In this document: piece after piece, positions 49,965-61,130 of the stretch | Position numbering within the stretch: the first letter of the stretch is position 1 | How the letters are laid out: each line of letters begins with the position of its first letter | From: a virus | DNA: 64,000 nt | Reading direction: 5' to 3' (one strand) | IMG/VR virus record: IMGVR_UViG_3300025413_001393 | Span: 61,103-125,102 of that record | Translations under genes and position numbers: made by a program | Notes under the pieces: model-generated | Database searches by the model: none | The model's input: the letters and a program-made list of their open reading frames with translations, nothing else | What the model was told of the DNA's origin: nothing

Positions 49965-50004
49965 AATACAAAATATAATACTACAATGTCATAGGACATA
50001 CAAC

Positions 50005-50041
50005 AAAAAACCCCTACTACCTTGATCAGAGGCAGTAGGGG
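50005..50041 (-). terminator. intrinsic terminator after large ncRNA
   Basis: CCCCTACT/AGTAGGGG stem plus T6. Confidence 0.85.
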
Positions 50042-50483
50042 CGAGATGATCAGACTCTTTCTTTATCTCTCTGCATTTTAGGGATAGCGATTCCTTTCTG
50101 GACTTGAGACCAGCAACTGGTAGCATTACTAAAGAGGTATTTGAGAAGATTTTATTCCGGATTTTGTTCTTTCCTCAACAGAGATCAGGCGTGGAGCCTC
50201 TACTTCCGTCCAGCTTGTGTTTAATCAATACGCTAGGATCAAAGCTTACCATAGGTTTTTGGCTCCCCTAACTTGAATAAGGACTACTAATATACCAACA
50301 AGCAACTCGTCCTTACTCCTCTCTAGGATAATTCCTACAACTAGAGAGTATTAATTTGTATGACTAGAAAATCTCATTCGCTTTCACGGAGATTTATCTT
50401 ACAAGCTACACGTTCACTCGGCCGAATGCTTCGCTATCACTTGTCGCGGGAGTCCTTTTGCATATCAGACTTGCGCCTAGTCA
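50042..50483 (-). ncRNA. large structured ncRNA candidate (~440 nt; class unknown, GOLLD/ROOL-like context)
   Basis: no ORF; stems TGACTAG/CTAGTCA, AAATCTC/GAGATTT, CTCTAG/CTAGAG, TAAGGAC/GTCCTTA, GGAGCC/GGCTCC; boxA upstream, terminator downstream. Confidence 0.72.
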
Positions 50484-50498
50484 AATTTTAAAATGTAC

Positions 50499-50510
50499 TA
50501 TCAAAGATCA
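50499..50510 (-). promoter_or_regulatory. boxA-like antitermination element
   Basis: TGATCTTTGATA; same motif precedes tmRNA and tRNA cluster. Confidence 0.55.
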
Positions 50511-51377: not shown

Positions 51378-51482
51378 TAATATATTTATACTATCATGTC
51401 TGTTATATATTAAGTCAACAACAATTTGCGAGAGTCGAAATATTCTTTGTTATTATTTCGACTTATCAACATAAGTAAATAT

Positions 51483-52019
51483 ATGAAAGAATTATACAAA
51501 ACTCAAATATTAAAACTTAGAAAGGAAGGAAAGACTTATACTGAAATAGTAAAAGAGGTTGGTTGTGCCTACTCCACTGTGAGCTACTATCTTTCTGGAA
51601 TTGTGAGAGAGAACGCTAAAAAACGTGCTATCAAAAATAAAAAACAAAACCCAGTGGATGATTTTACACTCATATTGCAACAAAAACTACACAATTATAA
51701 TTGTGATAATAAGAGCGGATCCGCAAAAAAATATTATCCAACACAAATAAGCATTAATGAGTTACGTAAAAAGTTAACGGCTTCTCCTATATGTTATTTG
51801 ACAGGAAAACGTCTCAATTTACTTAATAAATCAACGTGGTCTTTGGATCACAAAATTCCTAGATCTAAAGGAGGAAAAAACACTATTGAAAATATGGGAT
51901 TGGTGTGCTCAACAGCAAATCGCTGCAAACACGATTTATTGCTAAAAGATTTTTTAACTTTTTGTAAATGTATTTTAGAAAATTTTGGATACAAAGTAAC
52001 TGGACCAGAGGAGAGTTGA
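51483..52019 (+). mobile_element. HNH endonuclease with N-terminal HTH
   Basis: ILKLRKEGKTY.EI...GCA.STVSY HTH; CYLTG, SLDHKIP..KGG.N...N...C...N..K. Confidence 0.85.
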
Positions 52020-54427: not shown

Positions 54428-54925
54428 ATGAATTGCGTAAATTGTCAACAGCATACAAATAATCCTAAATTTTGTTCTCGATCGTGTGCAGCTAGTTACA
54501 CAAATAGAATTTCTCCAAAAAGAAAATTAACGAAAAAGTGTACTCAGTGTGATAGTATTGTAAGAAATTACAGGTCGAGACTGTGCGAACTTCATTTTCA
54601 GCAAGAAAAAGAACTCAGTAATGAAGCATATAAGAATAGAACTATGGGCTACTATCGTTCAAAAGATTGTCTTAAAAAATTGCATAAATCTTCTATACAT
54701 GCTCACGTAAGAGGTTTGTGTAGATTGTGGCTAAAACATCTTACTACTAAACCTTGCAAATTGTGCGGATACGACAAACACGTTGAGTTGTGTCACATAA
54801 AACCTCTGTCCAGCTTTTCTGACGAATCCCTCATAAGTGAAGTTAATTCGGAAACAAATGTTGTTCAGTTGTGTCGAAATTGTCATTGGGAATTGGATCA
54901 CAACATGATTCAATTAAAAGAGTGA
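54428..54925 (+). mobile_element. HNH endonuclease with N-terminal Zn fingers
   Basis: C..C...TNNPKFCSRSCA, C..CG...HVELCHIK, N...LC.NCHWE.D; TAAATA upstream. Confidence 0.85.
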
Positions 54926-61100: not shown

Positions 61101-61130
61101 ATGTGCTAATTATCAAAAATAAGTAGTTAT

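Follow-up and report, generated by a model that had tools for sequence, protein, structure and literature searches.

An array of structured non-coding RNAs that ends in a twister ribozyme in an uncultured T4-like lake phage

Results

Layout and genomic setting of the RNA locus

The window analysed here is a stretch of 64,000 nt (positions 61,103 to 125,102) of the 125-kb IMG/VR virus record IMGVR_UViG_3300025413_001393, whose completeness is estimated at 59%. A non-coding RNA locus lies on its minus strand, from about 50553 to 50004, and consists, from 5' to 3', of a putative promoter, a boxA-like box, a 123-nt RNA (module 1), an AU-rich linker, an RNA of ~210 nt (module 2, hereafter the central RNA), a twister ribozyme and a terminator (Table 1). 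A preliminary description of this locus, made from the DNA alone, had placed it among stable-RNA genes and had recorded a terminator followed by tRNA-Trp. Both statements hold. The motifs that it listed lie on the minus strand, which gives an RNA extending from about 50510 to 50004, and a tmRNA gene, a cluster of 16 tRNAs and the tRNA-Trp gene occupy the same strand. The DNA ligase of the source phage is closest to those of T4-superfamily phages; the source is an uncultured T4-like lake phage of ~200 kb, and the RNA operon is part of its tRNA/tmRNA region. Two HNH-endonuclease-like open reading frames (ORFs) are found in the same region, one at 51426-52019 on the plus strand, overlapping the tmRNA 3' end by ~20 nt on the opposite strand, and the other at 54428-54925, beside the tRNA cluster.

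The hairpin of the terminator recurs 3' of the twister in many relatives, and in two of them (L019 and L039) a tRNA-Trp gene is also present 3' of the twister. Provided that the terminator works, the tRNA-Trp of the window is outside the array transcript. Linkers of the AAAUU type separate every pair of modules and, in relatives, are also found 4 nt past tRNA 3' ends; the linker of the window, UACAAAUUAAUA, is thus a candidate site for a host endonuclease. No open frame is conserved across homologues or clades, in agreement with the initial remark that the locus lacks an ORF. Flanking genes were of little use as anchors: a HAD-like gene led to five relatives, none with the RNA alongside, and the search with an upstream 93-aa ORF returned no relatives. 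The minimum free energy of the whole region has a z-score of only -2.87, so folding energy alone says little, and the case for more-than-chance structure rests on covariation and not on folding energy. The locus is a real, conserved and phage-restricted RNA operon.

Table 1. Features of the RNA locus and of the neighbouring stable-RNA genes (window coordinates)
Feature	Position	Strand	Basis or remarks
boxA-like box of the tRNA cluster, UGAUCUUUGAAA	57236-57225		~70 nt ahead of the cluster, on the minus strand
Cluster of 16 tRNAs	57155-55652	minus	same strand as the RNA locus
boxA-like box of the tmRNA, CGAUCUUUGAAA	52484-52473	minus	10 nt ahead of the tmRNA
tmRNA	52463-51998	minus	466-nt gene; same strand as the RNA locus
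Putative promoter region	50553-50520	minus	-35-like TTGACT (50553-50548) and TATAAATA (50527-50520)
boxA-like box, UGAUCUUUGAUA	50510-50499	minus	15 nt before the first stem
Module 1 (5' domain)	50483-50361	minus	123-nt four-way junction with three arms, one GAAA-capped
AU-rich single-stranded linker, UACAAAUUAAUA	50360-50349	minus	between modules 1 and 2
Module 2 (central RNA)	50348-50136	minus	~210-nt pseudoknotted RNA; 24 distinct homologues (alignment A5)
Module 2, H1	50348-50341 with 50326-50319	minus	
Module 2, H2	50318-50309 with 50284-50275	minus	
Module 2, pseudoknot	50303-50298 with 50218-50213	minus	GCUUGU with ACAAGC
Module 2, candidate second pseudoknot	50338-50334 with 50255-50251	minus	GUAGG with CCUAU
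Module 2, H4	50210-50206 with 50181-50177	minus	GACGG with CUGUU
Module 2, apical hairpin			palindromic loop
Module 2, palindrome UCCGGA of the apical loop	50161-50156	minus	candidate symmetric kissing-loop contact
Type-P1 twister ribozyme	50134-50060	minus	Rfam RF03160, covariation
Twister P1			CUUUA/UAAAG
Predicted twister cleavage site	between U50128 and A50127	minus	
Twister P2 and L2			P2 UGC/GCA; L2 ACC
Twister P4/L4	50113-50098	minus	CUGG-UCUCAAGU-CCAG
Twister, small P5 hairpin	50095-50080	minus	
Twister 3' strand, GCAGAGAG	50074-50067	minus	
Intrinsic terminator	50042-50004	minus	terminator scan; 13-bp stem with 7 G-C pairs, loop CUGAUCA, U-run
tRNA-Trp (CCA)	49964-49891	minus	ARAGORN and Rfam; downstream neighbour

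Leader, promoter and boxA-like box

The element TATAAATA is the T4-type late-promoter motif and occurs in six of 24 distinct leaders, namely that of the window and five others. Most arrays carry instead, at the promoter position, a sigma-70-type TTGCCA-N17-TATATT that ends ~13 nt upstream of the box, and the TTGACT/TATAAATA region of the window would accordingly act as the promoter. With conserved promoter hexamers just upstream of it, the box would lie at the start of the transcript.

The box UGAUCUUUGAUA belongs to a leader of 29 nt that shows no variation across three phages (alignment A1), and GAUCUUUGA(A/C/U)A is found 11-17 nt ahead of the first module in 25 of the 31 distinct arrays described below; L019 and L039 have GAUCUUUAACA in its place. 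The preliminary description had reported a boxA-like leader ahead of the RNA, the tmRNA and the tRNA cluster, and boxes were located at all three (UGAUCUUUGAUA, CGAUCUUUGAAA and UGAUCUUUGAAA), so all three stable-RNA units of the window share the element. The tmRNA has in addition a strong sigma-70-type promoter, TTGAAA-N16-TATAAT, followed by its box (52534-52473, minus strand). The boxA of Escherichia coli is UGCUCUUUAACAA. From this sequence the box of the window differs at three of 12 positions. Judged by this resemblance to the consensus, the box fits a boxA-type antitermination signal for untranslated operons and may bind Nus factors.

A phage variant of the twister ribozyme

The 3' ~75 nt of the locus, initially described as part of one orphan RNA, belong to a known class that had been missed, the twister ribozymes. 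No Rfam family reaches its gathering score within 50000-50510. In a permissive Rfam scan, the type-P1 twister model RF03160 was matched over its full length at 50132-50063 (30 bits, E 2.7e-4). The score of 30.0 bits, like those of the two relatives that were scored (25.8 and 35.3 bits), is below the RF03160 gathering score of 67.2 bits, which is a database threshold and not a property of the fold. The low score of the window is explained by the missing P3 and by a 17-nt P5 insertion, both of which the model penalises, and by changes in the pseudoknots, which a covariance model is unable to score. The RF03160 cut-off misses the twister of the window and those of the two relatives, and it probably misses other phage twisters as well.

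Stems P1, P2 and P4 follow the type-P1 order around a U-A cleavage site, and the core letters, i.e. UAA at the site, GUC.CAAG.C in L4, the UAAA junction and the GAG.G strand, are all found in the window and recur in every relative. The window departs from the consensus in L4 (UCUCAAGU vs UCCCAAGC), in L2 (ACC vs GCC) and in the 3' strand (GAGAG vs GAGGG). In the established scheme, pseudoknot T2 pairs the bulged GC of L4 with the conserved GC of L2, and T1 pairs CCC(A) of L4 with L1 (PMC5408937). Under this scheme the three departures are compensatory, T1 being formed in the window by CUC with GAG and T2 by AC(C) with (AA)GU, and the only departures within the core are two compensated pseudoknot pairs.

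P1 and P4 covary among three phages. When viral contigs were scanned with the 5' half of the element fixed, 28 of the 30 sites proved to carry the unselected 3' strand GC(A/G)GAGAG, and the strands of P1 were widely different yet complementary. A second scan, in which the four pseudoknot positions were left free, yielded 140 distinct sites. At these free positions the middle pair of T1 was A-U in 76 cases, U-A in 23, C-G in nine, G-C in three and a non-pair in one, and the T2 pair was G-C in 88, A-U in 37, G-U in four and something else in 11. Across 112 phage copies, three P4 pairs are paired at 98-100%, each of the four Watson-Crick types being in use, and pairing is kept in 56 distinct P1 strands. 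Since P1, P2, P4 and both pseudoknots covary, the fold is that of a twister, by comparative sequence evidence, and self-cleavage at the U-A step is predicted.

Phage twisters with UGC as P2 (L057-L164) have mostly A-U as the T1 middle pair (76 of 112), and not the C-G of Rfam. Two members of the family, L047:11553-11662 (+) and L166, contain a P3 insertion of ~25 nt and have GAGGG as the 3' strand, so that the T1 middle pair becomes a U-G wobble. An exact 17-nt core is also shared by L016, where it is a chance match within a coding region. Compact twisters of the same variant are moreover found in the 5' UTRs of unrelated phage genes, at L027:9700-9800 (-), L045:2600-2720 (-), L026:10680-10760 (-) and L015:13100-13220 (+). 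In these the ribosome-binding site (e.g. CGAAAGGAG) is inside the P1 3' strand or just past it, so cleavage might free it and leave a message with a 5'-OH.

Structure of the two upstream RNAs

The central RNA was analysed through its 24 homologues, in which the explicit structure is paired in 95.1% of cells, as against 37-51% when the partners are slid. Its covariation score of 0.398 compares with 0.09-0.16 in the slid controls and is reached by none of 500 shuffles; the homologues form a few clades, and each covarying pair stands for perhaps 2-4 independent events. H1 and H2 correspond to two hairpins proposed at the outset, TACTC.CTAG/CTAGAG.GAGTA (CUCUCUAG/CUAGAGAG) and UAAGGAC/GUCCUUA, both of which are real helices with compensatory changes. 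The pseudoknot, which joins GCUUGU in the internal loop of H2 to ACAAGC 85 nt downstream, has three pairs changed on both sides, in 6-12 sequences. The candidate second pseudoknot between the H1 loop (GUAGG) and CCUAU is compatible with the alignment, with one-sided changes only and one matched insertion in L039.

Of the longer-range pairings in the preliminary description, GGAGCC/GGCUCC offers no useful variation and is partly broken in L039. The other, ATCTCTG/CAGAGAGAT, had to be abandoned: its 3' arm is the invariant GCAGAGAG strand of the twister, which pairs in T1, its 5' arm lies inside the covarying helix GACGG/CUGUU, and the two arms are not complementary in the homologues.

The apical loop of the central RNA holds a palindrome of 6-10 nt in 24 of 24 homologues, in the versions UCCGGA, UUCCGGAA, AUUCCGGAAU, UCGGCCGA, UUCUAGAA or AUACUAGUAU. 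These comprise four different cores, all three pair positions change on both sides, and the predicted loop-loop duplex amounts to -8 to -16 kcal/mol. Neighbouring nucleotides within a chain are unable to pair with one another, so a palindrome that persists through such changes suggests pairing between two copies, and the switching of palindromes fits a symmetric kissing dimer. Evidence of this kind was used for the symmetric intermolecular loops of OLE and GOLLD by Kretsch et al. 2025 (PMC12286853). The palindrome in the H1 loop (AAUU/UAUA/GGCC) was considered as a second kissing loop and rejected, being lost in L165, L018, L021 and L184 (AAUA).

Module 1 had been described as a 5' domain closed by TGACTAG/CTAGTCA with a GAAA-capped stem, and this account is sustained. 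The closing stem of 7 bp (UGACUAG/CUAGUCA) never varies, and the consensus fold of 11 distinct copies (alignment A6) has 38 pairs, five of which are changed on both sides; the compensatory changes are in arm 2 and in the GAAA-capped apex. On this comparative evidence the ~210-nt and the 123-nt RNA can be taken as shown to fold independently. In the loop of arm 1 (50466-50454, minus strand), four copies have the tetramer UGCA and seven have AGCU, both palindromes at the same position, which may weakly hint at a second loop-loop pairing.

Cassette architecture among relatives

Two near-complete relatives share the region at 78% and 74% identity. In the three-phage alignment the invariant leader is followed in G001 by a tRNA where the window has module 1. 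Viral and metagenome contigs were scanned for patterns and then annotated with profiles, which yielded 31 distinct arrays with a common grammar: the box, an optional tRNA-Met, module 1 or a further RNA termed X, an optional RNA termed Y, the central RNA and the twister. In these arrays tRNA-Met, module 1, X, Y and the central RNA are combined in ten different ways. Module 1 is substituted by tRNA-Met or by X in relatives, and in L019 it abuts the twister, the central RNA being absent. Where the 3' side is complete, the twister terminates 23 of 24 arrays, and the nearest upstream tRNA in relatives is >200 nt from its cleavage site. The initial view of one RNA of ~440 nt does not survive this comparison, in which the parts recombine independently and one is swapped for tRNA-Met; the locus is an array of independent modules and not a single RNA.

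Modules 1, X and Y each open with UUUGA(C/U) and finish in (G/A)UCA-UA, the two ends pairing as the closing stem, and where a tRNA precedes them they lie just 4 nt past its 3' end. X (~109-132 nt, closing stem UGACCG/CGGUCA) and Y (~99-138 nt, closing stem UGAUUACUG/CAGUAAUCA) are structured and uncatalogued. Both are capped by GNRA loops, contain hairpin insertions that differ between clades, and take the place of module 1 or accompany it; they are found at L037:3335-3550 (+) and in L021, L047, L171 and others. The ACUAGU of module Y is accounted for by the paired arms of a GCAA-capped hairpin. Downstream of the twister, some relatives (L018, L031, L033 and L035; L019 and L037) have no terminator but one of two other conserved non-coding segments, of the types GACUCGU...GGUGAG and AGCA.C.CCCUGUG.

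Database searches

Rfam searches of the window, of the region and of the two modules alone, at gathering and at permissive thresholds, returned nothing besides the twister, and modules 1 and 2 had no match even at E<=10. The GOLLD and ROOL covariance models gave no match either at the gathering score or at E<=10, and the suggestion of a compact member of these classes fails with them. No match to the region was obtained by blastn among 50,697 GenBank phage records. The central RNA had four matches in ~185,000 cellular genomes, none of them a credible homologue; that in L206 is a GC-rich, coding-looking stretch. RNase P RNA was suggested by GAGGAAAG and UCCGG, but these are in the wrong position and the model is not matched.

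The preliminary description had proposed Rfam searches combined with covariation in homologues as its check, the absence of a hit together with covariation denoting a new class. Both upstream RNAs show this combination. The same check spoke against GOLLD/ROOL and in favour of structured, uncatalogued RNAs. Modules 1 and 2 thus qualify as uncatalogued and phage-restricted structured RNAs.

Discussion

A probable stable-RNA operon with a ribozyme at its end

We consider it likely that the locus is a stable non-coding RNA operon which yields two folded RNAs and in which the twister most likely trims the 3' end. Judging from the conserved hexamers, transcription would start at a promoter ~10-30 nt upstream of the boxA-like box, and the box may recruit host Nus factors, allowing the untranslated transcript to escape Rho. 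Host endonucleases that process tRNA precursors probably cut the AU-rich linkers. The twister, directly after the second RNA, would cut itself between U50128 and A50127, which would leave a ~210-nt RNA with a defined 3' end and a 2',3'-cyclic phosphate, the ribozyme and the terminator being discarded. Palindrome switching suggests that this RNA may then pair with a second copy through its apical loop. As a weakly held guess, the two RNAs may be abundant late in infection and may bind some factor of the host or of the phage, or keep it sequestered.

The possibility that the twister products are circularised or religated was considered and set aside, no RtcB or T4 Rnl1-type enzyme having been found in three phage records. 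All that was found was a sub-threshold RNA-ligase match (PF09414, 25.6 bits) in a related phage, G005, at G005:C1:89018-89365, inside an open frame of 863 aa.

Alternative readings

That the locus encodes a single structured RNA of ~440 nt acting as a whole, whether a compact relative of GOLLD/ROOL or one new large class, is hardly credible any more. The parts are contiguous, with a common leader and terminator, tRNA genes adjoin them as they often do GOLLD and ROOL, and the GGAGCC/GGCUCC pairing is possible inside the central part. Nevertheless, GOLLD and ROOL are not matched at E<=10, the parts occur separately in ten combinations that include replacement by a tRNA, no covarying helix joins modules 1 and 2 (the search covered the central part, and module 1 closes on itself), and the 3' end of the locus is a ribozyme, which would sever itself from the rest; together these largely refute a single RNA already. 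It is almost as improbable, though not quite, that the twister-like element is a relic without activity, or a motif with a structural part only. Its Rfam score is below the gathering score, the window has U-U as its fourth P2 pair and P1 is short and AU-rich; against this, wherever the core departs from the consensus the pairing partner has changed to match, no relative varies at the core nucleotides and both pseudoknots are under purifying selection. A somewhat better, though still low, chance is given to a real twister with a controlling job, either uncoupling the array from what lies downstream or setting the decay rate of the upstream RNAs or of a message downstream. In several relatives further RNA modules, and not a terminator, come after the twister; twisters have been suggested to process polycistronic transcripts (PMC6765202); and unrelated phages have the same variant in 5' UTRs, just ahead of ribosome-binding sites, a setting that rules out a part in stable-RNA maturation. 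In the arrays, on the other hand, the twister always borders the last stable-RNA module on its 3' side, 15-25 nt past the final hairpin, and in the window the terminator comes directly after it, leaving nothing downstream to uncouple. That terminator also counts against 3'-end trimming, in that a strong one 3' of the twister lessens the need for a ribozyme.

For the central RNA, we hold as a speculative extension, which would sooner prove wrong than right, that it is a new compact class of self-assembling RNA, forming a kissing-loop dimer or a larger RNA-only assembly. The twister would set a 3' end that assembly requires, and module 1, X and Y, matured in the manner of tRNAs, would serve as exchangeable partners or as cargo. 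There is a smaller, yet appreciable, chance that the central RNA is monomeric and that its apical palindrome either is bound by a dimeric protein, as RNA or as DNA, or forms a small hairpin of its own. Palindromes are also typical of protein sites, the 10-nt AUACUAGUAU could make a weak 3-bp hairpin, and the raiA RNA, of similar size, is monomeric (PMC12286853). Conversely, the CCGG, CUAG and GGCC cores change while palindromy is kept in all 24 homologues, which argues against a sequence-specific protein site, expected to be constant; palindromes of 6 nt are unable to fold on themselves, and the loop sits on a hairpin flanked by A-rich single strands.

Significance and comparison with known systems

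Twister ribozymes have been known since 2014, when Roth et al. reportedly described twister as a self-cleaving ribozyme. Their role in bacteria and phages is still called unresolved (PMC6765202). In nearly every member of the phage lineage a twister borders a stable-RNA array on its 3' side, which points to a specific and testable job, the formation of structured-RNA 3' ends. The idea that phage ribozymes replace host nucleases, developed for the theta ribozymes, would be widened to a second ribozyme class and to substrates other than tRNAs. Modules 1 and 2 are well folded, phage-restricted and new to Rfam, and for the central RNA there is self-pairing evidence of the kind available for OLE and GOLLD before their structures were solved by cryo-EM.

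The element shares with the type-P1 twisters of RF03160 the order P1, U-A-A, P2, L2, P4/L4, optional P5 and 3' strand, as well as the conserved core letters and pseudoknots T1 and T2. It differs in the lack of P3, in the 17-nt P5 insertion and in its pseudoknot pairs, which in the window are U-A (T1 middle) and A-U (T2) where the model consensus has C-G and G-C. Its setting at the 3' edge of a stable-RNA array is a further difference, of which no description was found in the literature; no link of twister to phage tRNA or stable-RNA arrays was found in the literature searched. As for the leader, boxA and NusB-NusE serve the antitermination of untranslated operons and have been described for rrn and lambda (PMC3177189, PMC4807359). 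The box of the window would resemble theirs as a short U-rich element that opens long untranslated transcripts, and it is found ahead of the three stable-RNA units.

Phage T4 produces eight tRNAs and the species I and II RNAs from one precursor (PMC2330249). Species I and II are likewise small stable RNAs of a T4-type phage, co-transcribed with tRNAs and released by processing; the RNAs described here have no blastn similarity to them and are modular and swappable, in an array that ends in a ribozyme. The likeness to GOLLD, ROOL and OLE (PMC12286853) is that of structured RNAs, phage- or tRNA-associated, with unassigned roles, and palindrome switching in a loop is also seen in OLE and GOLLD, whose kissing loops are symmetric. 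These three lack Rfam-model homology to the central RNA, which is much smaller (~210 nt), and have five or more contacts, whereas the central RNA has one candidate contact. Moreover, GOLLD and ROOL each fold as one large RNA, whereas the modules here occur separately and in ten combinations.

The nearest parallel, along with the T4 RNAs, would be the HDV-like theta ribozymes, which cleave the 3' trailers of phage tRNAs (PMC10879173, where twister is unmentioned). In both systems a small ribozyme that cleaves itself in cis sets, or would set, the 3' end of a stable phage RNA with no host nuclease. Theta ribozymes come from gut phages, have an HDV-like fold and cut at the tRNA 3' end, whereas the arrays of lake T4-like phages employ a twister on a substrate that is not a tRNA, with a predicted cut downstream of the substrate RNA that would leave the 2',3'-cyclic phosphate on it.
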